IMG/VR virus record: IMGVR_UViG_3300029419_000188
Length of the DNA stretch: 64,000 nucleotides
Source: a virus
Reading direction: 5' to 3' (one strand)
The notes under the pieces: model-generated
What the model saw: only the letters and a program-made list of their open reading frames with translations
What the model was told of the DNA's origin: nothing
Database searches by the model: none
Made by a program: the position numbers and the translations under genes
In this document: positions 1-62,592 of the stretch, piece after piece
Numbering within the stretch: the stretch's first letter is position 1
How the letters are laid out: every line of letters begins with the position of its first letter

Positions 1-39
1 TATAATTGACTAGTTAAGAAAGTATTATGTCTTTACATA

Positions 40-252
40 ATGTGGACTTAGGTGGTTGGGATTGTCAGGTATGCTTATGGATAGGCTGTAAGTGATTTGA
101 CTAACAATAGGTGAGAAACAATTTTGTTTCAAGATACTTGAAGACAATGACGCTTGACAAAATGGATATCGTCCAAGATAATCAGACAGATGATTTCTTT
201 GGAACATGAATGCCATGATAGACTTACACTAGAAGTCTGTCTATTTTTTTTC
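40..252 (+). ncRNA. candidate small RNA / 3' structured element: GC-richer segment ending in a rho-independent terminator
   Basis: GC-enriched relative to surroundings; no credible ORF; terminal hairpin agacttacactagaagtct followed by a T-run at ~219-252. Confidence 0.2.
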
Positions 253-598
253 TTTTCATGTTGCAAGGGGATTATCTGCCAAGATATATGAAATGAGTAC
301 GGTGTTTTATATAAAAAATTTGTTTTGAGTAATTTCAATACATTGTATTAAATTTTTACATCTTGGCAGATATTTCTCCCTCGAAGACAAATGTGTATTG
401 TTTTTATATGAAATCAAAAATTGATATCTTGTCTGAGAGGTGAATGCGAAATATACCTATTTAAAATTTTAAATAAAATTATAAATAATAAAAAGCATTC
501 ATCTAATTATATCTGTATATTCTGAAGAATAAATGAAATTGGTTCACGTACTGTGAAAGGATTTGCATAACAACAGAGTGTTTGTTTTGAAGTAATGA

Positions 599-1006
599 TT
601 CCTATCAGAATATATAAAACAAATATGAAATAAATGTTATTCCTATTTTGATATTCATTAAAATCCAATTCTAAATCATAAATATCAAATAGTAATCTGA
701 TAGGATACAAAAAAAATGATTATTGAATTCTAAAACAAACACGAACTCAATAGTGTTTGGTTGTAAGATAGATACCTATCAGAATATTTAAATCTAATCT
801 TAAATGAATGTATTTCAAATATTGATATTCATTAAAATCTAATTGTAAATCGTAAATGACAAATGGTAATCTGATAGGATATCAATCAAATAGTAAATTC
901 ATACCAAACACTATAAAGCAGTGTTAGATTCAAATAGTAATTCCTATCAGGATATAAAACTTATACTCTTATCATAAAAAATACATGATAATCTGATAAG
1001 ATATAT
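599..1006. repeat. three tandem ~110-bp modules, each bounded by inverted repeats (TTCCTATCAGA ... TCTGATAGGA), within a ~1.7 kb non-coding region
   Basis: copy 1 ~599-708, copy 2 ~774-882 (~80% identical to copy 1), shorter copy 3 ~941-1006; additional IR pair tctgccaagat (281-291) / atcttggcaga (362-372). Confidence 0.6.
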
Positions 1007-1678
1007 TACTAAATATTGTAATAATAAACACTGCAAACCCAGTACTGTAGTTGCAAATCCATTCCCTTCTATAGTAACAAGAACAATAGACAAGCTATTG
1101 TTCTATTTTGCGTTTTATGATTTCATTCTTCTATTAAGTATGATAAATTTATATAAAATCAGAAAGTAATAATATATAAAATACATCATACGTTTCGGTA
1201 ATTTTGATTGATAAAAATTATAAATAGAAATTTGTAAAAAAAATGATAAACAATCAAAATACTCCAAAGAACAGATTTAAAACAAGTAATGATTATAGAT
1301 GTTTTGATAAATAAAATATAATTGAAAATATATAAAATAAAATAGTTAACAAAACAAATTAATATATTAAAAACTGTTCTTTGTGATAGATACATCATTT
1401 ATGATAAGTTCTGTGTTCTTTAATAATTTCTTACCGATAAAAAAGAAGAATGATAATAGATGTACTGTTATCTTTAGAAACGCTATAGTATATTGAAATT
1501 ATATTTATATTGTTATATGATAAAACATTTATATATTATATTATTCAGATGAAAACTAATCAAAAATGTTTTTGTGTAATTTACACAAATTAAAATTTAT
1601 CTAAAATTTAAAAATATCTAAACACAAAAAAGTTAATACAGTTTTTTTTGTATTAGATTTCATGTTTTATAAAGTTTT

Positions 1679-1690
1679 ATCTATAATAAA
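1679..1690 (+). promoter_or_regulatory. recurrent promoter motif (T-rich)-ATCTATAATA, representative copy
   Basis: the same extended -10-like motif occurs at ~2557, 3417, 9835, 10296, 10650, 17583, 19174, 21583, 22403, 25792, 30793, 34894 and 46486, each 20-60 bp upstream of a start codon. Confidence 0.55.
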
Positions 1691-1729
1691 AAAATGAAAT
1701 TAAAAAAGAATAAAAAAGGAGGAGTTTTT

Positions 1730-2497: not shown

Positions 2498-2605
2498 AGA
2501 AATGCAAAAGTTAGAACATTTATTGGTATTAGTTTTTATATCTTTTAAAGTTTTCTCTATAATAAAAAAATGAAATTAAAAAAGAATAAAAAAGGAGGAG
2601 TTTTT

Positions 2606-3361
2606 GTGAAAGTTGGATATGCAATTTTATATGAAGATGGTACTTTAACCATTTCTAAAAAACATACTATTTTACAAACACCAATATATATAGATTTTGG
2701 AGAGTTTGATGATAATAAGATTCCTTGGTATCATGAAATAGAGTTTATTAAAAATGTACAAATTATTGAACCTATGAAAGTTACATGTTTGGTTTATTGG
2801 TTTTATCATTGTACAAATTTAACTACATTAATTGATTTTCAAAATCTAGATGTATCTGATTGTGAAGAATTTTCTTATTTATTTTGTGGTTGTCAATCAT
2901 TAAAGAATATTTTATCATTAAAGAATTGGAATGTTTCTAATGGAAAAGAATTTTCATTTATGTTTGCAAATTGTACATCCTTACAAGATATTTCAGCATT
3001 ATCTAATTGGAATATGTCTAATGGAGAAGAACTTTCTAATATGTTTTGTGGTTGTAATTCTCTAACAGATATTTCAGAATTACAAAATTGGGATGTATCT
3101 AATGGGAAATTCTTTTCATTTATGTTTTGTAGTTGTAAATCTTTAATTAATGTTTCAGCATTACAAAATTGGAATATGTTTAATGGAGAAACTTTTTATT
3201 ATTTGTTTTGTGATTGTTTCAATTTAAAAGAAATTCATTTACCAAATAGGTTAAATTTTTTAACATTTACCATGTTTGATGGTTGTAATGAAAATTTAAA
3301 AATTCATTGGAAAAATAAAATTTATACTTATGAGGATGTAATTGAATATAAAAAATTTTAA
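2606..3361 (+). CDS. DUF285 / PARCEL-repeat protein, tandem paralog of 1730..2497
   Basis: same promoter, leader and N-terminus as upstream copy; same repeat architecture; GTG start after AGGAGG. Confidence 0.7.
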   Translation: MKVGYAILYEDGTLTISKKHTILQTPIYIDFGEFDDNKIPWYHEIEFIKNVQIIEPMKVTCLVYWFYHCTNLTTLIDFQNLDVSDCEEFSYLFCGCQSLKNILSLKNWNVSNGKEFSFMFANCTSLQDISALSNWNMSNGEELSNMFCGCNSLTDISELQNWDVSNGKFFSFMFCSCKSLINVSALQNWNMFNGETFYYLFCDCFNLKEIHLPNRLNFLTFTMFDGCNENLKIHWKNKIYTYEDVIEYKKF

Positions 3362-3447
3362 AACATGAAAAGCTAAGACATTTTTTGTATTAGATTTTAT
3401 ATTTTATAGAGTTTTATCTATAATAAAAAAAATAAAAATTTATTATT

Positions 3448-15455: not shown

Positions 15456-17256
15456 ACTCATGACTAAAGTCACGAGTGTCTTTCAAGATACATGTTTATA
15501 ACTCATTAAAAATGAGTATAGGATTAAATGCACAATCCAGATATTTTCTTACCTCATATGCCTGATGCAAATTTTTTGGATTTGTCTTACTCTGGCTCGC
15601 ATAGTTATCCCTTGATAACCATGATCGTACTATATACGATATAAGCTTAAACTACCACCATTCCCAGCGGTACTAAATTTTTTATATAATAATTGATAAA
15701 ATCTATTGTTGATATTTCATTTACATCGTTATATATATATAATTAATTTTATAAAGTTTTTTTATTATAACCTAAAATTTTATATTACAAGAATATTATT
15801 AAGAGACAAAATACTAATACCTTCATCAAATAAATTATTTTTTGCATTTGCATCTCGATCATGATGTACTCCACAAATTGGACATGTCCATTCACGATTA
15901 TTTAATTTCAAATTTACATTCTTATAACCACAATGATTACATAACTTACTAGATGCAAAAAATCTATCTACTTGAAGAAAAATGCCACCTTTCTTTTCCA
16001 TTTTATATTTTACAAATGTTAAAAATTGTCCCCAACCAACTGATGCAATTGCTTTCGCTAACTTATGATTTTTTATCATACCTTTAATATTTAAATCTTC
16101 ACAAATAAAAACATCACATTTATTTACAATTTCTTTACTTAATTTATGATGAAAATCTTTTCTTTGATTTTTAATCTTTTGATGTTCTTTTGCTAATTTG
16201 TATTTTGCTTTTTGATAATTATTAGATCCTTTCTTTTTTCTACTAAGTGATTGACTTAATCTTCTTACTCTTTTTTCATGTACTTTAATAAATTTTGGAT
16301 TTTCAACTTTTTCAGTATAATCTTTATTTCCATAAATAGCAAAATCTTTAATTCCCATATCAGATGCAATAATATTTTTTACATGCACAGTCGTAATAGG
16401 AATTGGTTTATCAACAATTGCTTCCATTTGCAATGAAATAGTATAAGTATCTTTATTTCTTTTTATTGTTGCACTTGTAATATTTGTATTCTCTGGTTGA
16501 ATATCCTGTAAGGTTTTTCTTTTTGGTAAAACAAATCTTACTTTTCCAACTTTAGGAATTTTTACATATGGTAATTTATCAATCATTAATAATTCAATGT
16601 TGTTATTTGTATATTTTGTTGTATAGGAGTTTCCACTTTCTTTATATTTATCTACAAATTTAGGAAATCCTGCTTTTTTACCATTTTTAATATTTTCAAA
16701 AAAATGATTATATGCATCATCAACATGTTCAATTGCACTTTCTAATGCAAATTTATCAGATAATTTTAAGAATCCATTTTCTTTTTTTAATTTTGGTAAA
16801 AAATTCTTTTTATAGTCAGATACAAATAGAGTTTCTTTTGAAGTTTCATAAAGATTTTTACGTTCTGATAAATAATTATTTCTTACAAATCTTGCATTAC
16901 CAATTTGTTGATTAATATTGATTGTTTGCTTTTCATTTGGTAATAAAGACAAAATAATACCATAATTAAAAAGCATTTTTCCATATGGTTCAAGAAGTGT
17001 ATTCTTATCTTTTGTAATAGTGAAACTTCTGCCATGAAAAATATATTTATTATTAATGATTTCTAATGTTAGCATATTTTTTATTCCTTTCATATCTGAT
17101 AAATATCATTCTATTACATTTATTGACAAAAGTCAATAAAAAATTCGTTTTTTAGTATTTTTTTATATTTTTAATAATTTCTTTATACATTAAAAATATC
17201 CTACAATAATAGTATTATTGTAGAAAGAAACTTTACTCATGACTAAAGTCACGAGT
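15455..17256 (-). mobile_element. TnpB-only IS200/IS605-family element (IS1341-like) bracketed by a 23-bp direct repeat containing an imperfect hairpin
   Basis: tactcatgactaaagtcacgagt at 15455-15477 and 17234-17256; tnpB inside; GC-richer 3' region 15480-15780 where a right-end guide (omega) RNA would be encoded. Confidence 0.55.
15780..17075 (-). CDS. tnpB: TnpB (IS605 OrfB family RNA-guided nuclease-like transposon protein)
   Basis: GNARFVRNNYL N-terminal motif and a C-terminal zinc finger CNHCGY...CPICG followed by HDRDANAKNN (RuvC-III-like); start moved to the ATG with RBS GAAAGGA. Confidence 0.7.
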   Translation of the reverse strand: MLTLEIINNKYIFHGRSFTITKDKNTLLEPYGKMLFNYGIILSLLPNEKQTININQQIGNARFVRNNYLSERKNLYETSKETLFVSDYKKNFLPKLKKENGFLKLSDKFALESAIEHVDDAYNHFFENIKNGKKAGFPKFVDKYKESGNSYTTKYTNNNIELLMIDKLPYVKIPKVGKVRFVLPKRKTLQDIQPENTNITSATIKRNKDTYTISLQMEAIVDKPIPITTVHVKNIIASDMGIKDFAIYGNKDYTEKVENPKFIKVHEKRVRRLSQSLSRKKKGSNNYQKAKYKLAKEHQKIKNQRKDFHHKLSKEIVNKCDVFICEDLNIKGMIKNHKLAKAIASVGWGQFLTFVKYKMEKKGGIFLQVDRFFASSKLCNHCGYKNVNLKLNNREWTCPICGVHHDRDANAKNNLFDEGISILSLNNILVI

Positions 17257-19219: not shown

Positions 19220-19903
19220 ATGAAAATAGAGATACAAGAAGTATTAGAAACTCTTCAATCAGATATTACTGAAAAAGAAAATCAAATTAATTTAATCAAA
19301 AATATTGATTGGACAAAATCTGTAACAGAAGAAGAATGGCATCAAATTTGTGAAACTTTATTACGAACTTCAGATTCATTATGTGATCTCTTAAAAAATA
19401 CTTTTCCAAATGCAACAGATATTAAACTTGGAATGAATTATGTAAATTTTAATTTATATGGATTTAAATGTTTACTTCCAACATCTATTTATGAAGAAAT
19501 ACTTGTTGATATGAGTTGGAATAAAAATCTAAAAAAACCAACACTTGAAAACACAATGAATCAATTTGAGAGAAATATGCGAGAATATTTCAAGTCAGTA
19601 GATTCTCATGAATCTTGGTTAAAATTATTTGATTTAAGATTTTTACAGTTTAAACATTATAAAAAATGGATTAAATTCATTTTATGGTTTGGGAAATATA
19701 AATGGAAAAATGTTCATCGAGAAAAATGGGAAGAACAATTCAAAAATACAGAAGAAAGAGTTACTGAAAAATTAAATTTGTATAAAAAAGAAAAAAGAGA
19801 AATTGAAGAAAAAAATAAAATACTTCATGAGAAATTGTTACCAGAATTATATCAATTTACAAAAAATGTTTATGATAAAGATTACAAAAAAGAAATTATT
19901 TAA
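19220..19903 (+). CDS. hypothetical protein, paralog family B
   Basis: promoter tctataat at 19174; paralog of 8809..9495. Confidence 0.6.
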   Translation: MKIEIQEVLETLQSDITEKENQINLIKNIDWTKSVTEEEWHQICETLLRTSDSLCDLLKNTFPNATDIKLGMNYVNFNLYGFKCLLPTSIYEEILVDMSWNKNLKKPTLENTMNQFERNMREYFKSVDSHESWLKLFDLRFLQFKHYKKWIKFILWFGKYKWKNVHREKWEEQFKNTEERVTEKLNLYKKEKREIEEKNKILHEKLLPELYQFTKNVYDKDYKKEII

Positions 19904-19919
19904 AAAAAGGAGAGAAAAT

Positions 19920-21161
19920 ATGGGAAAGTTAATTTTTTGTTATGGAGCAATGGGTGCATCTAAAAGTGCAGAATTACTTATGTGGCGGTATAACTATGAA
20001 CAATCTGGATACTCAGTATTATTGATGAAACCTAAGATTGATAATAGAGAAGAATTTTTGTCAAATAAAATGGGCGTGATTTCATCTAGAATTGGATTAA
20101 CTGCAGAATGTTTATTAATTGATAAAAAAATTGAAGAATGGGAAAATGAAATACAATGTCATGATATTATTATGGTTGATGAGTCTCAATTTTTAACAGA
20201 ATTACAAGTAGATGAATTATATCAAATTTCTATGAATAAAACTGTTATTTGTTTTGGTCTTAGGACTGATTTTACACAACACTTTTTCTCTGGTAGTAAA
20301 AGACTTATGGAATTGGCAACAGATATCAGAGAATTAAAGACAGTTTGTACTTGTGGGAAAAAAGCAACTATTAATGCTAGATTAAATGGAGATAAATTAG
20401 TAACAGAAGGTGAACAAATACAAATTGGTGCAAATGAATCATATAAAGCAATGTGTAAAGATTGTTTTGAAAAACTAAAAAAAGAAAGTGAAGAAAATCA
20501 TGAAATAACAAAAGAAGAAATTACTAAAATTATTAAAAATGACAATTTGGATTTACAAATTCTTGATGAAGGTATTGATATATCATTTAAAGAATACGCA
20601 GAAAAACATTCATTGGAAGAGTCAATAAATATATTATGGAATATATTTAAAAACGAAAAATCTGCAATAAAAAATGGATATTCAAAAGAACATTATCAAG
20701 ATTATCTATCATTATTTAAAAAAGAAATGCAAAAAGACATTAATAAAACATATAATGCATTAGAAATATCAAAATATATAATAAATAAATGTTTAGAGGA
20801 TAAAAAACCTATCTCGCATATACAACTTCAGAAAATATTATATTCTATTCAATTAGAATTTTTAGAAATCAATAAAGTTTTGTTTTCTGATAATTTTTAT
20901 GCAATTCAAATTGGCCCAGTAATTTTAAGTGTATATAATTATTTTTGTGGATCTGGAGCACAAAAAATCATGACATCTTTTAAAACAGATATTCAGTGGA
21001 ATGAATTAGATAAAATAATCATTGATCAAATTATAAAGGAAAAAAGAGAATTATTGCCATGGGAATTTAATGAAGAGATTATGTATAAAAATTCTCCATA
21101 TGATATTACATGGCAAAATGGAAAAGGAAATTGGAAAATAATTAAATTGACAAAAGGATAA
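19920..21161 (+). CDS. tdk: thymidine kinase with a C-terminal Panacea (DUF4065)-like domain
   Basis: N-terminus has P-loop GAMGASKSAEL, MVDESQFL and a C-terminal CxCG Zn site typical of type II TK; the final ~200 aa contain ISHIQLQKILYSIQLEF...FYAIQIGPVILSVYNYF, matching the Panacea-domain pattern (LQKLLY...AW.yGPV...vY); start at the ATG after AAAAAGGAGAGAAAAT. Confidence 0.6.
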   Translation: MGKLIFCYGAMGASKSAELLMWRYNYEQSGYSVLLMKPKIDNREEFLSNKMGVISSRIGLTAECLLIDKKIEEWENEIQCHDIIMVDESQFLTELQVDELYQISMNKTVICFGLRTDFTQHFFSGSKRLMELATDIRELKTVCTCGKKATINARLNGDKLVTEGEQIQIGANESYKAMCKDCFEKLKKESEENHEITKEEITKIIKNDNLDLQILDEGIDISFKEYAEKHSLEESINILWNIFKNEKSAIKNGYSKEHYQDYLSLFKKEMQKDINKTYNALEISKYIINKCLEDKKPISHIQLQKILYSIQLEFLEINKVLFSDNFYAIQIGPVILSVYNYFCGSGAQKIMTSFKTDIQWNELDKIIIDQIIKEKRELLPWEFNEEIMYKNSPYDITWQNGKGNWKIIKLTKG

Positions 21162-27575: not shown

Positions 27576-27667
27576 ATGGCTAAAGGATATCCTATTGATG
27601 TTGAATTTAGAGATATTTTTGGTGAATTTTTGAGTATTTAATGAGATATGAAAAGGAGTATATTTTT

Positions 27668-28123
27668 ATGACAAATAAAAGAAGAATTTCAAAAGATGAA
27701 TATTATTTAAATATTGCAAAAGTAGTAGCAGCTAGAAGTACTTGTCTGAAAAGACAATATGGTGTAGTAATTGTAAATAATGATGAAATTGTTGCAACTG
27801 GTTATAATGGCTCTGCTAGAGGTGAAATAAACTGTTGTGACATTTACACACATTGTCCACGTTATAATGAACCACATAATCAAGGTAATTATACTGATTG
27901 TCCAGCTGTTCATGCAGAACAAAATGCATTGTTATCAGCTTCTAGACATGAAATTGTAGGTGGTACACTGTATTTAAGTGGATATTCTATTGAATATGGG
28001 GAAAACAATGAAATTATTAAAAATGAAATGAAAGAAACAACACCATGTCTTATATGTTCTAGATTAATTAAGAATTCAGGTATTACTAGAATTGTAGGGC
28101 CACAAGGTGATATCAAATTATAA
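27668..28123 (+). CDS. dCMP deaminase (cytidine/deoxycytidylate deaminase zinc-binding family)
   Basis: RSTCLKRQ.G..IV.....V.TGYNG, HAEQNAL (zinc-binding H.E) and PCLICSRLI (PC..C) motifs; start at the ATG with RBS GAAAAGGAG. Confidence 0.7.
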   Translation: MTNKRRISKDEYYLNIAKVVAARSTCLKRQYGVVIVNNDEIVATGYNGSARGEINCCDIYTHCPRYNEPHNQGNYTDCPAVHAEQNALLSASRHEIVGGTLYLSGYSIEYGENNEIIKNEMKETTPCLICSRLIKNSGITRIVGPQGDIKL

Positions 28124-31449: not shown

Positions 31450-31665
31450 TTTAATATTGACAACCTCCCACGGATAAATCCGTGGGATTCCTTAGATTCG
31501 ACAATCGCACTAGCATTCCTAAGAACACTAGATATAAATTGTCTCTTTCAGGATTTCGTGCATTTCGTTCAAGGCAAAGCCTTTTACTAGATATCTTGTT
31601 TTCACAAGAACAACGCGGTTGATGTCTGAACCGTTTTTTATTTATTTATATGTTAATTAATTAAA
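31450..31665 (-). ncRNA. putative TnpB guide (omega/right-end) RNA scaffold region
   Basis: GC-rich structured non-coding DNA immediately 3' of tnpB with several hairpins, where IS605-family TnpB omega RNAs are encoded. Confidence 0.4.
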
Positions 31666-33235
31666 ATCCAAAACAATTTTTATAACTAATTTTTTTTGCT
31701 TTCATATCTGCAATCAATTCATTTTGCAACTTTATAAAATTATCAAATTCTGCAATACACTTATCTCTATCAACATGTTTAAAACTTATATCTGCATTAT
31801 GGTATAAAAATGCACTATATAAATCTCGTTGTACTTTTTGTCCATCAATTATTTTTTCTCTTTGGTTTAATGGTATTTTTACATAAGTATCTGTATCATG
31901 ATTATATTGACTACCTTTATATGTGATAGGATTCACATAAACAATTTTTCCCTCCATTTGTTTTACTTTTTCTTCTAACAATTTTAAAAATCTAGCTGGT
32001 GATCTATCATTAATTGTTTTTCCAAAACGTTTACATCTATTTTTATTATTATTTGATTTTATTTGTTTATCATTATTTTCAAATGTTGTATTTGTTTCTT
32101 TTTTATTATTGACATTTTGTTCATTTGAACAATCTTTTGTTTCTACAAGTTTCTTTTTTTCCTTCTTTTTTAATGCATTAAAATTCATATCTTCAATAAT
32201 AAAAAATAATGAGTCTTTTACTATTTCATTTACTTGAGTTCTGTGTGAATGTGTTGTATATTCAGATTTTTGTCGATACAAATTTTTTAATTTATTTCTT
32301 AACATACAATATCTTTTTGAATATACCCATTTATCTTTACTTCTCTTTTTTATTGTTCCATCTTCATTATATTTCTTTGGATTTGTTATACGCTTTGAAT
32401 ATTCCATCTTTTTTTGAATTTTTGCAATTTTTCTATTATAATTTTTACATTTTGGTGCTAATTCATTTAAAACAGTTTTTGTCTCTGAATATCCAGCAAC
32501 AGTTGAAATACTTGGATCCATTCCCATTGTGGAACCTTTTGATGTTATATTTCGTTTTGGTGGTTCTCCTTTGACATAAATTAGCGCATAATAGTGCCAA
32601 CCATTATTAAACATTCTACGTTTAATTTCACAATAAGAAATTTTATTTTCTAAAGATTCAAACAAATACACATCTTCAAGATTATATTTGGATATTTTGC
32701 ATTTTAAGTTAAGACCTAAATATTCAATTGTATAAGTATTTTTGTCAAATTTAATTCCATTTTTTAGACTTTTACTTGGAAGTGTATTAAAATCACGGAC
32801 TTTTTTATAATGAATTGTTTTTCCAGTTGAAAACAAAACCTTTTGAACACCATTCCAAACATTATCTACCTCTTTTTGAACTTGTGAGGATGCCAACATT
32901 TTAGAAAATTGACTACCACAAACTTTCATATAAGACTCTAATCCAGTTTTTGTGAGTCCGATTTCATACTTTATTTGATTCATGATATCTGATAATTCTT
33001 TTTTCCGTTTTTGTTTTTTTTCTTTATCAGATTTTGTATTTGGTTTTGATTCATTTAATTTAATATATTCTGTCAAAGCATTTTGATATTTTTTATTTGT
33101 TTTTAATGAGTTGATAAGTTTTTTTGTATGAGATACACATACATTATGAACATGTTCTAATGCAAAAAATCGATTTGCTAACTCTCTATGATCATATTTT
33201 GTTGTATCAATTAATAATTCTACAGTATACATCAT
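31661..33235 (-). CDS. tnpB: TnpB (IS605 OrfB family)
   Basis: 524-aa protein in the canonical position downstream of tnpA within paired IS ends. Confidence 0.65.
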   Translation of the reverse strand: MMYTVELLIDTTKYDHRELANRFFALEHVHNVCVSHTKKLINSLKTNKKYQNALTEYIKLNESKPNTKSDKEKKQKRKKELSDIMNQIKYEIGLTKTGLESYMKVCGSQFSKMLASSQVQKEVDNVWNGVQKVLFSTGKTIHYKKVRDFNTLPSKSLKNGIKFDKNTYTIEYLGLNLKCKISKYNLEDVYLFESLENKISYCEIKRRMFNNGWHYYALIYVKGEPPKRNITSKGSTMGMDPSISTVAGYSETKTVLNELAPKCKNYNRKIAKIQKKMEYSKRITNPKKYNEDGTIKKRSKDKWVYSKRYCMLRNKLKNLYRQKSEYTTHSHRTQVNEIVKDSLFFIIEDMNFNALKKKEKKKLVETKDCSNEQNVNNKKETNTTFENNDKQIKSNNNKNRCKRFGKTINDRSPARFLKLLEEKVKQMEGKIVYVNPITYKGSQYNHDTDTYVKIPLNQREKIIDGQKVQRDLYSAFLYHNADISFKHVDRDKCIAEFDNFIKLQNELIADMKAKKISYKNCFGF

Positions 33236-33247
33236 TTCATCTCTTTC

Positions 33248-33649
33248 TTAAGGTCTTGTTTTTTGTGTATTAATATAATTTTTAATTGTTAAACTACTAA
33301 CATTTTCAGCAGTTGAAACAAAATAACTTCTAGTCCATAAACTTGGCATTTTACTAAGTTGTGGAAATGTATCTCTTAATATTTTAGATGATGAACCTTT
33401 AATCCATTTCATAACATCTTGTGGTGATTGAGTTGGCAAACATTTCACAAATAAATGGACATGATCTTTATGACATTCCATAGTTAATATTTGAATGTTT
33501 CGTCTTTTGTATTCATTTATTGTTAATTGTTTAAACATATCTTCTACACCTTTAATTAAAAATATTTTTCTTCTATATCTTGGACAAAATACGAAATGAT
33601 AATGAATCATTGAAACTGTTGTTTTGGTTGAAATATAATCATTTTGCAT
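33248..33649 (-). CDS. tnpA: IS200-type Y1 (HUH) transposase TnpA
   Basis: HYHFVFCPRYRR, HxH motif HKDHVHLFV and catalytic-Tyr region RSYFVSTAENVS. Confidence 0.75.
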   Translation of the reverse strand: MQNDYISTKTTVSMIHYHFVFCPRYRRKIFLIKGVEDMFKQLTINEYKRRNIQILTMECHKDHVHLFVKCLPTQSPQDVMKWIKGSSSKILRDTFPQLSKMPSLWTRSYFVSTAENVSSLTIKNYINTQKTRP

Positions 33650-58131: not shown

Positions 58132-59250
58132 CTACTTCACTTCATACAACATTTCTGTAATTTTTTCTCCAGCTTCTCGATCCATTTCTTTTAATGTATG
58201 AGCGTAGATGTTAAGAGTAGTTGTAATATTACTGTGTCCAAGTCTGTCAGATACAATCTTAGAATTCACATTCTTCTGAATTAACAAAGTTGCATGTGCA
58301 TGTCTTAAATCATGAAAACGAATTTGTTTTAATTCTTTTTTTATTAAAAATCTTCTAAAACGTTGTGAAATACAATCTTCTCCAATTGGATTTCCTTTTT
58401 TATCAAAGAAAATTAATTCATCATTTATTCTTTCACCTTTTAATCTTTTTTGAATTTGTTTCTTACGTTCTTTCTTTAACATTTCAAAAATTTCTTGTGG
58501 TCCTGATAAATCACGGATAGAACTTTCTGTCTTTGGTTCTTTTAATATTACTTCACCATTTACTCTTGCAGTAATTTGTCTAACATGTATCACTTTATTT
58601 TCAAAATCAATATCTTGCCATCGAAGACCAAGTATTTCACTAATTCTTAAACCAAATCCAACTGCTAGATGTATTGGTAATTCAATATTTTTATCTTTCA
58701 CTTTTTCAAATAATATTTTCAAATCTTCTTCTGTATAAATTTCATTCTTAAATTTATTATTCTTTGGTATCATAATCCTATCAACAATTTTATCATCAAT
58801 TATTTGAAGTTTATATGCATAAGTAAGTGCAATACTTAATATATTTAAATGAATTTTTACTGTTTGTGGCTTTAATTCTAATATTTTTAAATCTACATAT
58901 TTTTGTAAATGAATGGGCTGCAACTCAGATAGCTTCAATTTACCAAGTATTGGATAAATATGTTTGATTAATATTTTTATATATTGTTCATATGTTGTAA
59001 TACTTATATTTCGTTTATATGAATTCATAAATTCATTCATATAATTTTCTAATGTTTGTTCATTTGGTAATTGCAATTTATTTATATCTTTTAAATATGA
59101 TAATTCTCGTTTTCGTTTTTCTGCATCTTTCTTATTCGTATAAGTTCCCATATTCTTCTGACTTCTTTTCTTAAACTCATCTTCAGATGTAAGATATACA
59201 TAATATTTACTGTTTCGTTCTCGTATAAATATACTCACTATTCTTTCCAT
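58132..59250 (-). CDS. tyrosine recombinase / phage-type integrase
   Basis: C-terminal catalytic region HDLRHAHATLLIQ...GHSNITTTLNIYAH (R..H..R..Y signature); N-terminal SAM-like core-binding region; RBS GAAAGGAGTATATT. Confidence 0.8.
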   Translation of the reverse strand: MERIVSIFIRERNSKYYVYLTSEDEFKKRSQKNMGTYTNKKDAEKRKRELSYLKDINKLQLPNEQTLENYMNEFMNSYKRNISITTYEQYIKILIKHIYPILGKLKLSELQPIHLQKYVDLKILELKPQTVKIHLNILSIALTYAYKLQIIDDKIVDRIMIPKNNKFKNEIYTEEDLKILFEKVKDKNIELPIHLAVGFGLRISEILGLRWQDIDFENKVIHVRQITARVNGEVILKEPKTESSIRDLSGPQEIFEMLKKERKKQIQKRLKGERINDELIFFDKKGNPIGEDCISQRFRRFLIKKELKQIRFHDLRHAHATLLIQKNVNSKIVSDRLGHSNITTTLNIYAHTLKEMDREAGEKITEMLYEVK

Positions 59251-59460: not shown

Positions 59461-60069
59461 ATGATTGTTGGATATGCAGTACTTTATAAAGATGGAACTC
59501 TTGTAATTTCAAAAAAACATAGTATTTTATCAAAAAAAGTGAGAAAAGATTATGGTCAATTTGAAGATACAAATGTGTCATGGAAAAATGAAATAAAAAA
59601 AATAGAAAAGGTTCATATTTTAGATTAAATAAAATCAAATTATCTAAAAAAATGGTTTGAAGATTGTATCAATTTAACTACATTGATTGATTTTCAAAAT
59701 TTAGATACTTCTGATTGTACCAATTTTTCAAGAATGTTTACTTATTGTAAATCCTTACAAAATATAAATGAATTACAAAATTGGAATGTTTCCAATGGTA
59801 CTAATTTTTCATGTATGTTTTCATTTTGTGAATCATTACAAAACATACAATCTCTTAAATTATTTAATGTGTCCAATGGTATGAATTTTATAAGTATGTT
59901 TGAGGGCTGTAAAAACATTATAACACTTGAATATCTAAAAGATTGGGATGTATCAAACGGAACATTGTTTGGAGAAATGTTTAAAGATTGTATAAATTTA
60001 ATAGATATATCTGCTGTAGATCAGTGGAATATTTCTAAAGGAAAAGATATTGAAGATATGTTTGATTGA
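59461..60069 (+). pseudogene. DUF285/PARCEL family gene with an in-frame TAA (59626-59628)
   Basis: MIVGYAVLYKDGTLVISKKH...VHILD-TAA-IKSNYLKKWFEDCINLTTLIDFQNLDTSDC... aligns with the 1730..2497 protein; the stop falls where the paralog has Gln/Asn. Confidence 0.6.
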
Positions 60070-62172: not shown

Positions 62173-62592
62173 TTATTCAACTTTTTGATTTTTGATATAT
62201 TCTTCCACTATTTTTGTGTTTCTTTCACTAACAGTACAAATAAAATAAGAATGACTCCAAAAATATGGTTTCCAATAATATTTATTTAATTGTTGTTGAA
62301 AGTTTTTTCTTATGTTCCTTGATGAAGCACTTTTAAATGCATTTATAAACTGAGATAAATTTACATTTGTACCACATTCAAATAATATATGAATATGATC
62401 AATATTTGTATTTATTTCAAGTAAATGAAAATCTCTTTCACTAAAATATGTATTTGTATAGTTTATTAAAAATTTTTCTAAATCATTATTAATTATAGGT
62501 TTTCTGTATTTTGTAACTAACACTAAATGGTATTGTAATAAAAAGCAACTATGTCGATTTAAATAATATGTATTGTTGTTATTTTTTTTCAT
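62173..62592 (-). CDS. tnpA: IS200-type Y1 (HUH) transposase TnpA
   Basis: HxH motif IDHIHILFE and Tyr region HSYFICTVSE; start at MKKNNNN with RBS AGGAAGGAG. Confidence 0.7.
   Translation of the reverse strand: MKKNNNNTYYLNRHSCFLLQYHLVLVTKYRKPIINNDLEKFLINYTNTYFSERDFHLLEINTNIDHIHILFECGTNVNLSQFINAFKSASSRNIRKNFQQQLNKYYWKPYFWSHSYFICTVSERNTKIVEEYIKNQKVE

Follow-up and report, generated by a model that had tools for sequence, protein, structure and literature searches.

A tandem array of nested inverted repeats in the non-coding backbone of a low-GC human gut element: a candidate replication-associated hairpin site

This study concerns the non-coding left end of a 64,000-nucleotide (nt) stretch of DNA, the IMG/VR virus record IMGVR_UViG_3300029419_000188 (hereafter the window; all positions are counted from its first letter). 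The window is part of an uncultured element of the human gut that exceeds 97 kb and has a guanine-cytosine (GC) content of 23%. Between positions 577 and 1034 it holds a tandem triplication of one unit with a period of 174 bp. This array is without sequence or Rfam relatives and its architecture is unusual, as it consists of tandem nested hairpin units with invariant arm cores. Among the functions that could be envisioned, we favor, though with less than even confidence, a hairpin-forming cis-acting DNA element tied to replication, acting either in initiator loading or in single-strand priming. The largest conserved non-coding block of the element, array included, is at the same time the best handle on its maintenance: in the about 98 kb of the element seen, no replication (rep), partition (par), transfer (conjugation) or virion genes were recognized, and the element has no relatives in plasmid or phage databases.

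Architecture of the array

A first, sequence-only reading of this region had described three tandem modules bounded by inverted repeats, and such modules are indeed present, with small corrections at their ends. Module 1 starts with TTCCTATCAGA (599-609) and ends with TCTGATAGGA (696-705). Module 2 starts with TACCTATCAGA (773-783), not with TTCC, and ends with TCTGATAGGA as well (870-879), and the arms of module 3, CCTATCAGG (943-951) and TCTGATAAG (992-1000), comprise one mismatch apiece. However, the modules capture the inner inverted repeat only. The 'spacers' between them belong to the 174-bp repeat, and an outer inverted repeat had been overlooked. A repeat search found the copies 597-734 and 771-908 to be 78% identical without gaps. 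Each unit is a nested inverted repeat, in which the outer arms AGTGTTTG/CAAACAC surround the inner arms CCTATCAGA/TCTGATAGG (the inner pair can also be written CCTATCAGAATAT/TCTGATAGGATA). The outer left arm AGTGTTTG is located at 577, 752 and 920 and the outer right arm CAAACAC(T) at 736, 905 and 1027, while the centers of the inner arms are spaced 95, 79, 95, 73 and 49 bp.

None of the three units is assigned to a strand. Unit 1 (577-743) comprises an outer stem at 578-589/731-742, with 11 Watson-Crick pairs and one G.T pair, and an inner stem of 10 bp at 600-609/696-705. The outer stem of unit 2 (750-914) counts 12 bp (750-761/903-914) and its inner stem 9 bp (775-783/870-878), plus GATA/TATC past a bulge. 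These two full-length units share an invariant central block of 18 bp, TTGATATTCATTAAAATC, at 648-665 and 822-839. Unit 3 (918-1034) is a short form with an outer stem of 8 bp (918-925/1027-1034); an alignment of the copies demonstrates that it is the same unit minus about 50 bp of its interior, including the central block. Its inner arms (943-951/992-1000) carry one change each in the window, whereas both are perfect in a second strain, L028 (OLQI01008159.1). According to folding, each unit could form a hairpin of 117-168 nt.

A partial extra inner arm, ATATTCTGA, was found at 517-529, about 80 nt upstream of unit 1. It is complementary to TCAGAATAT at 606-614 and may be the vestige of a fourth unit.

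Sequence constraint and covariation

Inverted repeats are far more frequent in this region than expected by chance. Between 260 and 1120, we counted 24 perfect 9-mer inverted-repeat seeds at most 200 nt apart, compared to 3.6 ± 2.6 (maximum 14) in 500 dinucleotide shuffles, an approximately 7-fold excess. For the folding of the units, z-scores range from -3.4 to -4.9, whichever strand is taken and whether DNA or RNA parameters are used. Furthermore, the motifs themselves are concentrated in the array. Within the 64-kb window, exact AGTGTTTG occurs in the array only, and exact CCTATCAGA four times in the array and once elsewhere; a search of the window for the motif, as the earlier reading had proposed, thus returned a single site outside and no other copy of the array. 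If one mismatch is allowed, CCTATCAGA is found 17 times in the window, where 7.5 matches are expected, and 6 of these 17 are in the array.

Units 1 and 2 are 78.5% identical overall. Three invariant runs are longest, the central block TTGATATTCATTAAAATC (18 columns) and, with flanking positions included, each of the inner arms (13 and 16 columns). The outer arm cores (8 and 7 columns) are invariant as well. All core stem pairs are of the Watson-Crick type and do not vary in sequence. A comparison with L028, which is 95.4% identical to the window over 1-1545, gave a similar picture, since none of the 17 differences in units 1 and 2 falls into an arm core, and the central block is likewise the same in both strains. 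We estimate that chance would have preserved all four of the perfect repeats of units 1 and 2 with a probability of P <1e-3, assuming about 11% unconstrained drift per unit. Judged from these comparisons, the arms appear to be under selection. Gene conversion between the units was considered as well; the strain differences follow the pattern of simple new mutations and hence provide no evidence for it.

The outer stems extend past the shared core into sequence that is unit-specific, yet complementary. In three cases both sides of a pair have changed with pairing preserved: T585-A735 in unit 1 corresponds to G760-C904 in unit 2, while A750-T914 and T751-A913 in unit 2 correspond to G918-C1034 and C919-G1033 in unit 3. 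The partners of the compensated pairs are 107-165 nt apart. The rival pairing, in short palindromes across the unit junctions, is limited to 6-7 bp. The three compensatory double changes thus favor intrastrand pairing, be it in a cruciform, in single-stranded DNA or in RNA, over plain double-stranded dyad sites.

A single-locus feature

Neither self-BLAST of the window nor nhmmer on 374 kb of related loci detected a further copy of the array. Pattern scans of IMG/VR gave no array copy either, but chance matches in GC-rich contigs or none at all. Among 185,579 GTDB species representatives a pattern scan found one chance match, inside the carA gene of Holdemanella, and the only true match in the JGI metagenomes was the orthologous locus in L028. 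Against PLSDB and INPHARED, neither positions 1-1700 nor the left extension gave a meaningful BLAST match. Because no other copy was found in the window, the related loci, IMG/VR, the GTDB representatives or the JGI metagenomes, the array is not a miniature inverted-repeat transposable element (MITE); it is a single-locus feature. The earlier reading had named a match to a known MITE family among the outcomes that would speak against an origin or partition site. The terminal inverted repeats are 10-13 bp long and no target-site duplication was visible by inspection.

The window gave no Rfam match at gathering score, and for 1-1750 and L028 noise alone was obtained at E<10. The large RNAs 6S, GOLLD, ROOL and OLE were without Rfam match, and tRNA or tmRNA identity was ruled out by search.

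Flanking signals

The array lies in a long non-coding block, as the sequence-only reading had proposed. No open reading frame (ORF) longer than 70 aa exists in window 1-1693, the longest ORFs lack ribosome-binding sites, and no codon periodicity is evident between the units. A coding reading of the minus strand of the units (Y-P-I-R-L...) was rejected: of the 30 positions at which units 1 and 2 differ, 11, 9 and 10 fall into the three codon phases, and the minus-strand ORFs lack a Shine-Dalgarno sequence. The first credible gene encodes a DUF285/PARCEL-repeat protein, starting at 1694 or 1730. To the left, the gene-free region continues in L028 for at least another 733 bp without ORF.

Upstream of the array, a sigma-70-like promoter P1 is located on the plus strand at 154-182 (TTGACA, 17-nt spacer, GATAAT; 11/12 matches), identical in L028. 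Promoter-like matches overall number 20 against 17.2 expected and are not enriched over shuffles, and P1 is to be read as a consensus match only. It is followed by the intrinsic-terminator-like hairpin T1 (217-251, plus strand), which comprises a 9-bp stem, with a T.G wobble that exists on the plus strand only, and then 8 T. Together, P1 and T1 would yield an RNA of about 60 nt. Next comes HP1, a long hairpin of 113 nt (267-379, no strand assigned) with the arms TATCTGCCAAGAT (273-285) and ATCTTGGCAGATA (360-372). Its folding z-scores lie between -5 and -6 for either strand and either parameter set (DNA and RNA), and its stem of 13-16 bp includes the pair tctgccaagat/atcttggcaga that had been reported upstream of the modules and is indeed present at 275-285 and 360-370. 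The arms of HP1 resemble the module arms (ATCTGCCAAGAT compared to ATCTGATAGGAT, as a direct repeat), with both arms changed in concert. A further hairpin, HP2 (377-441, again without strand), is formed by the arms CCCTCGAAGACAA and TTGTCTGAGAGG and has a z-score of -2.6.

Downstream, the hairpin described earlier was confirmed as well: gaacaatagacaagctattgttc at 1081-1103 is contained in T2, a second intrinsic-terminator-like hairpin on the plus strand (1080-1116). T2 comprises a 10-bp stem, a 5-nt loop and a T-rich tail, its z-score is -4.4 and its stem is identical in L028. In total, two terminator-like sites were found where 0.1 are expected. T2 is followed by a conserved AT-rich tract (1117-1545, no strand) of 15-20% GC, which stops at the junction 1545/1546 where L028 diverges. 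The array itself has 22-23% GC, level with the genome, while the left part of the block, including the L028 extension, is GC-richer (30-35%) and dense in hairpins. This left part folds better as plus-strand RNA (-215 compared to -172 kcal/mol), though with a z-score of about -3.6 on both strands.

Two further candidates for the array were rejected. One is a Type III toxin-antitoxin RNA array: here the units are 174 bp long, and T2 is followed by about 580 bp without ORF and then by a DUF285 gene. The other is a rolling-circle nick site. TTGATATT in the central block resembles what we take to be the phiX174/pC194 nick motif; however, the 'loop' would be 87 nt, and tandem double-strand origins would be unstable.

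The non-coding block also contains a 63-aa ORF on the minus strand (25-216; 60 aa from a second ATG at 207), with a -10-like TATCAT just upstream and no Shine-Dalgarno sequence. All three substitutions between the window and L028 (73, 100 and 124) are synonymous third-position changes. However, no homolog was found among 1.84 billion representative proteins, and the ORF is not on record as a called gene. Consequently, it is probably spurious.

The element and its gene content

Near-identical contigs of the element were found in several metagenome studies. The longest view is provided by a scaffold of 97,460 bp, which extends from window 1447 to about 98.9 kb when counted in window positions. 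It does not return onto the array region, so that no circular closure was obtained. Past the right end of the window it encodes, among more genes, another TnpB and a DnaE-type DNA polymerase III alpha subunit of 1321 aa (L039 2283-6248, about 25 kb beyond the window), which is approximately 38-44% identical to its best matches in phage collections and Firmicute plasmid records. Other recognizable genes of the element encode a thymidine kinase-Panacea fusion, a dCMP deaminase, a nucleotide-kinase-like protein, RarA/MgsA, flotillin, a VWA and AAA pair, an integrase and IS200/IS605 elements. For a 740-aa protein of the element, PLSDB and INPHARED contain no relative, and a 129-aa neighbor protein is an orphan.

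Most window ORFs of at least 120 aa are on the plus strand, and this bias continues to about 98 kb. The GC skew is positive and its cumulative curve climbs from the left edge of the window. Exact-protein look-ups with neighboring genes retrieved only contigs that end inside the region of interest, L014 at window 566 and both L015 and the 97-kb scaffold at 1447, and no contig was found that reaches further left than L028. At the junction 1545/1546, L028 leaves the match to the window and continues with another cassette (L028 1-520), made up of a consensus TTGACA-17-TATAAT promoter, a 71-aa gene and then a leucine-rich-repeat gene. Given this sharp divergence, the non-coding block represents conserved backbone beside variable cargo. 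The VCHO16 assemblies, namely L015 and the 97-kb scaffold, stop at 1447, about 100 bp short of this junction, probably as a result of the strain-level branch point there.

The cargo next to the block comprises DUF285/PARCEL-repeat genes at 1694-2497 and 2570-3361, with fragments at 59461-60069. The same leader of about 70-100 bp (1604-1700, 2506-2576, 3345-3431) precedes each of these genes, and they share the same N-terminal peptide. This leader also stands before up to six tandem paralogs in L022 and L023, two plasmid-like contigs which were found via DUF285 homologs and which share cassettes and leaders with the window, while the array is absent from both. Loosely related contigs that have nothing but DUF285 cassettes in common with the window carry VirB4/TraG-like and primase genes. 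The DUF285/PARCEL genes are possibly a variable, cassette-like family of surface proteins.

Three IS200/IS605 insertions were observed in the window. The first is a lone TnpB (15780-17093, minus strand). The second (31661-33649, minus strand) comprises a Y1 transposase (33248-33649) beside a 524-aa ORF. The third, from 62173 to beyond 64000, consists of divergent tnpA (62173-62592, minus strand) and tnpB (from 62783, plus strand) and runs off the window; the same tnpA was found on at least 24 contigs of public assemblies. We considered the orientation of these elements as a marker of replication direction, but the copies are mixed in orientation and thus uninformative. The thymidine kinase (19803-21161, plus strand) is fused to a SocA/Panacea antitoxin-type domain. 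Near it lies the dCMP deaminase (27641-28123), presumably the ORF that matches the NCBIfam model 'anti-phage dCTP deaminase'. Taken together, the two genes point to a module for the nucleotide pool or for defence. The segment 54440-54740, which has no ORF, is GC-richer and comprises several stems, looks like a non-coding RNA, without Rfam match at gathering score. It holds the inverted repeat TCTGATAGGAA (54500) ... TTCTATCAGAA (54574), in which the CTGATAG core of the modules appears in flipped order.

Possible functions of the array

The array is placed in conserved backbone, beside a tract of 15-20% GC and upstream of at least 98 kb in which most genes point rightward. This setting favors a cis-acting maintenance site, which is our leading reading even though we give it less than an even chance. 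The rightward genes and the positive GC skew fit an origin at or left of the array region, and the array matches the genome in GC content, which is typical of DNA sites but less so of stable RNAs. Once this AT-rich DNA were unwound or single-stranded, each unit would fold into its hairpin or into a cruciform, and a sequence-specific protein would then recognize the arms. The likeliest role would be in replication of the element, as an initiator-loading or a single-strand initiation (priming) signal, with the adjoining tract (1117-1545) as an easily melted region and forks leaving rightwards. Hairpin formation in vivo, binding of a protein and replication as the process served are what we infer from the arrangement as a whole. 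An origin or priming signal would define the replication module of a class of gut elements and provide a tool for cloning and for linking the element to its host.

Several results weigh against a replication site. DnaA boxes (TTATCCACA, at most one mismatch) number 24 in the window where 26.6 are expected, with none in 1-1700. Tandem Repeats Finder and a repeat search revealed low-complexity AT repeats and the 174-bp unit only, but no short tandem iterons (17-22 bp, at least three copies), and the 16-bp parS palindrome TGTTNCACGTGAAACA has no match in 1-1700 at up to three mismatches. Of the original proposal of an origin or partition site, the cis-acting maintenance site still stands as the leading reading, whereas the analogies to iterons and parS fail. 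As had been stated before, no known replication or partition gene is found near the array: among those window ORFs that were compared to Pfam, PHROGs and NCBIfam, no rep, par, relaxase or conjugation gene was found. The suggestion to look just left of the window could be followed for the 733 bp given by L028, and the GC skew does not change sign there. Between the strains, the array diverges more than its flanks (about 8% compared to about 2.7%), and the segment 440-560, upstream of unit 1, is the most divergent at about 10%. The interior of units 1 and 2 folds without conserved pairing, so that the hairpins would be two stems around a large open loop. G.T wobbles in the unit stems are somewhat commoner on the plus strand, and the region is bracketed by P1 and two terminators on that same strand, which favors an RNA. 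Finally, the covariation rests on three paralogous units in two strains, because only two diverged sequences exist.

The main rival to a replication site is a non-coding RNA of the plus strand, which we consider possible but rather unlikely. Transcribed from P1 (154-182), subject to read-through or regulation at T1 and ending at T2, it would carry the units as tandem hairpin domains; variants are a processed small-RNA array, a replication-control RNA or preprimer, and a decoy. P1 is near consensus, the two plus-strand terminator-like hairpins bracket HP1, HP2 and all three units, and T2 is strong, without an upstream gene to terminate. The strand-specific wobbles in T1 and the unit stems point to the same strand, as does the better folding of the GC-richer, hairpin-dense left part as plus-strand RNA, though its z-scores are alike on both strands, and the compensatory changes suit RNA as well as single-stranded DNA. 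However, the Rfam search yielded noise alone, the units are low in GC and lack conserved interior structure, and their invariant Watson-Crick core pairs look more like site recognition than pure structure. In addition, no convincing plus-strand promoter was found by reading between T1 and unit 1 (the promoter search gave only a 9/12 match there, at 460-489), and the mismatch in HP1 is A.C on the plus strand but a G.T wobble on the minus strand. If the array were indeed transcribed in this way, it would represent a new family of tandem hairpin RNAs. One might speculate that the units and HP1 form a new class of long-hairpin modules on a Firmicute-type mobile element, either as single-strand signals (priming sites or promoters, a low-GC Gram-positive counterpart of Frpo/ssi) or as a ~170-nt RNA array (P1 to T2), although we regard this suggestion, both alternatives taken together, as doubtful.

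The remaining alternatives are less probable still. It is improbable that the array is functionless, a drifting palindrome or MITE-like relic that owes its tandem copies to slippage or unequal recombination. Its divergence between strains would fit, as would the 50-bp deletion and the two arm mutations of unit 3 in the window; AT-rich DNA readily gives rise to tandem repeats, and MITE families, among them the Correia elements, typically include a long form and a short one that has lost internal sequence. Yet all three units retain their repeat cores at an identity of about 79%, three double changes are compensatory, the arm cores are the same in both strains, and the lack of dispersed copies anywhere searched, together with the absence of a visible target-site duplication, argues against an active or recently active MITE family. 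A centromere-like partition site, at which a small DNA-binding protein coats the repeated arms and pairs or segregates copies of the element, is somewhat less likely again. It would account for the presence of two kinds of conserved half-site, 12 in all and in both orientations, in about 460 bp of backbone, and for motifs that are essentially limited to the array within the window; mixed orientations are also found in known centromeres, for example P1 parS and the pSM19035 heptad arrays. However, the window has neither a canonical parS nor a gene of the ParA, ParB, ParM, ParR or TubZ type, the spacing of the arms is irregular and altered between strains by a 2-bp deletion in L028 (709-710), and compensatory changes about 160 nt apart are unexpected for plain double-stranded binding sites. 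We deem it least likely, in fact very unlikely, that the modules are recombinase sites, either as invertible switches or as a platform that exchanges the DUF285/PARCEL cassettes about 500 bp downstream. What invites this idea are the inverted repeats of 9-13 bp that flank a segment of about 87 bp, the minus-strand promoter-like motif just inside the right arm in six of six unit copies (TTAC[C/T]A or TTATCA, a spacer of 16-17 nt, and TAGAAT, TACAAT or TATGAT), the variable cassettes from 1546 on, with DUF285 leaders conserved as in phase-variable surface-protein families, and a tyrosine recombinase at 58132-59250. But the window, L014 and L028 are collinear, with no inversion among these three assemblies, and the recombinase, a phage-type enzyme and the sole integrase, is 57 kb distant. 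The first cassette gene follows the array only after T2 and about 600 bp, the cassettes have their own promoters, and the promoter-like matches are not enriched over shuffles. Integron attC sites were rejected as well: by inspection GTTRRRY fits one of three junctions and RYYYAAC none.

Relation to described systems

The array can be compared with several known systems. MITE-like repeats such as Correia, BOX and RUP share with the array a module length of about 105 bp, inverted repeats of 10-13 bp at the termini, promoter-like motifs near the ends, and long and short forms that differ by an internal deletion of about 50 bp. The Correia, pneumococcal BOX and pneumococcal RUP families are dispersed in tens to hundreds of copies, whereas the array is single-locus, repeats in tandem including its spacers and shows no visible target-site duplication. 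Invertible switches (fimS, the cwpV-type of Clostridioides difficile) resemble it in their short inverted repeats, their promoter-like motif and nearby variable surface-type genes. In contrast to these switches, no inverted variant was seen among the three strains, no recombinase is adjacent, and a terminator and about 600 bp precede the first gene. Type I centromeres (P1 parS, chromosomal parS) are likewise made of short inverted motifs in backbone DNA, but the array lacks the 16-bp palindrome and par genes, and its arms are spaced 41-87 bp apart.

Among replication origins, the iteron type of plasmids (Rep_3/RepA) is similar in that repeated motifs lie in non-coding backbone beside an AT-rich tract. 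Iterons are direct repeats of 17-22 bp in tight tandem beside a rep gene. The array differs in all these respects, as its repeat measures 174 bp, its short motifs are inverted and 41-161 bp apart, and no rep gene is found within 64 kb; L023, which is only loosely related and has nothing but DUF285 cassettes in common with the element, carries a Rep_3 gene. The nearest architecture known to us is that of P4. Its ori/crr contains two direct repeats of about 120 bp, each with several initiator-binding octamers in both orientations. The crr thus combines, like the array, large tandem units with short motifs in both orientations. However, the two share no sequence similarity, the window encodes no P4-alpha-type primase-helicase, and the nested arms of the array are complementary and covary, which crr is not known to show.

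A further comparison is offered by signals that act on single strands. The sso of rolling-circle plasmids is a single-strand initiation signal; TAGCGT, the CS-6 motif of ssoA, was spotted by eye only once, at approximately 1484-1489 on the minus strand and outside the hairpins. The single-strand promoter Frpo depends on a long stem, nearly uninterrupted, in which -35 and -10 hexamers are set at promoter spacing (PMC11541004). In contrast, the units fold, with DNA parameters, into two short stems around a large, poorly paired interior, their promoter-like matches reach 9/12, lie outside the paired segments and are not enriched over shuffles, and no relaxase, oriT or conjugation gene is present in the window, whereas Frpo has its place in the leading region, beside oriT and a relaxase. 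Nevertheless, Frpo/ssi of conjugative plasmids (PMC11541004) and sso share with the array long hairpins (about 100-330 nt) which are non-coding, lie upstream of co-oriented genes and are repeated per element. They act only on single-stranded DNA, and selection for intrastrand pairing in the array fits such a mode of action. By analogy, Frpo/ssi and sso may thus be the closest functional counterparts of its long hairpins.

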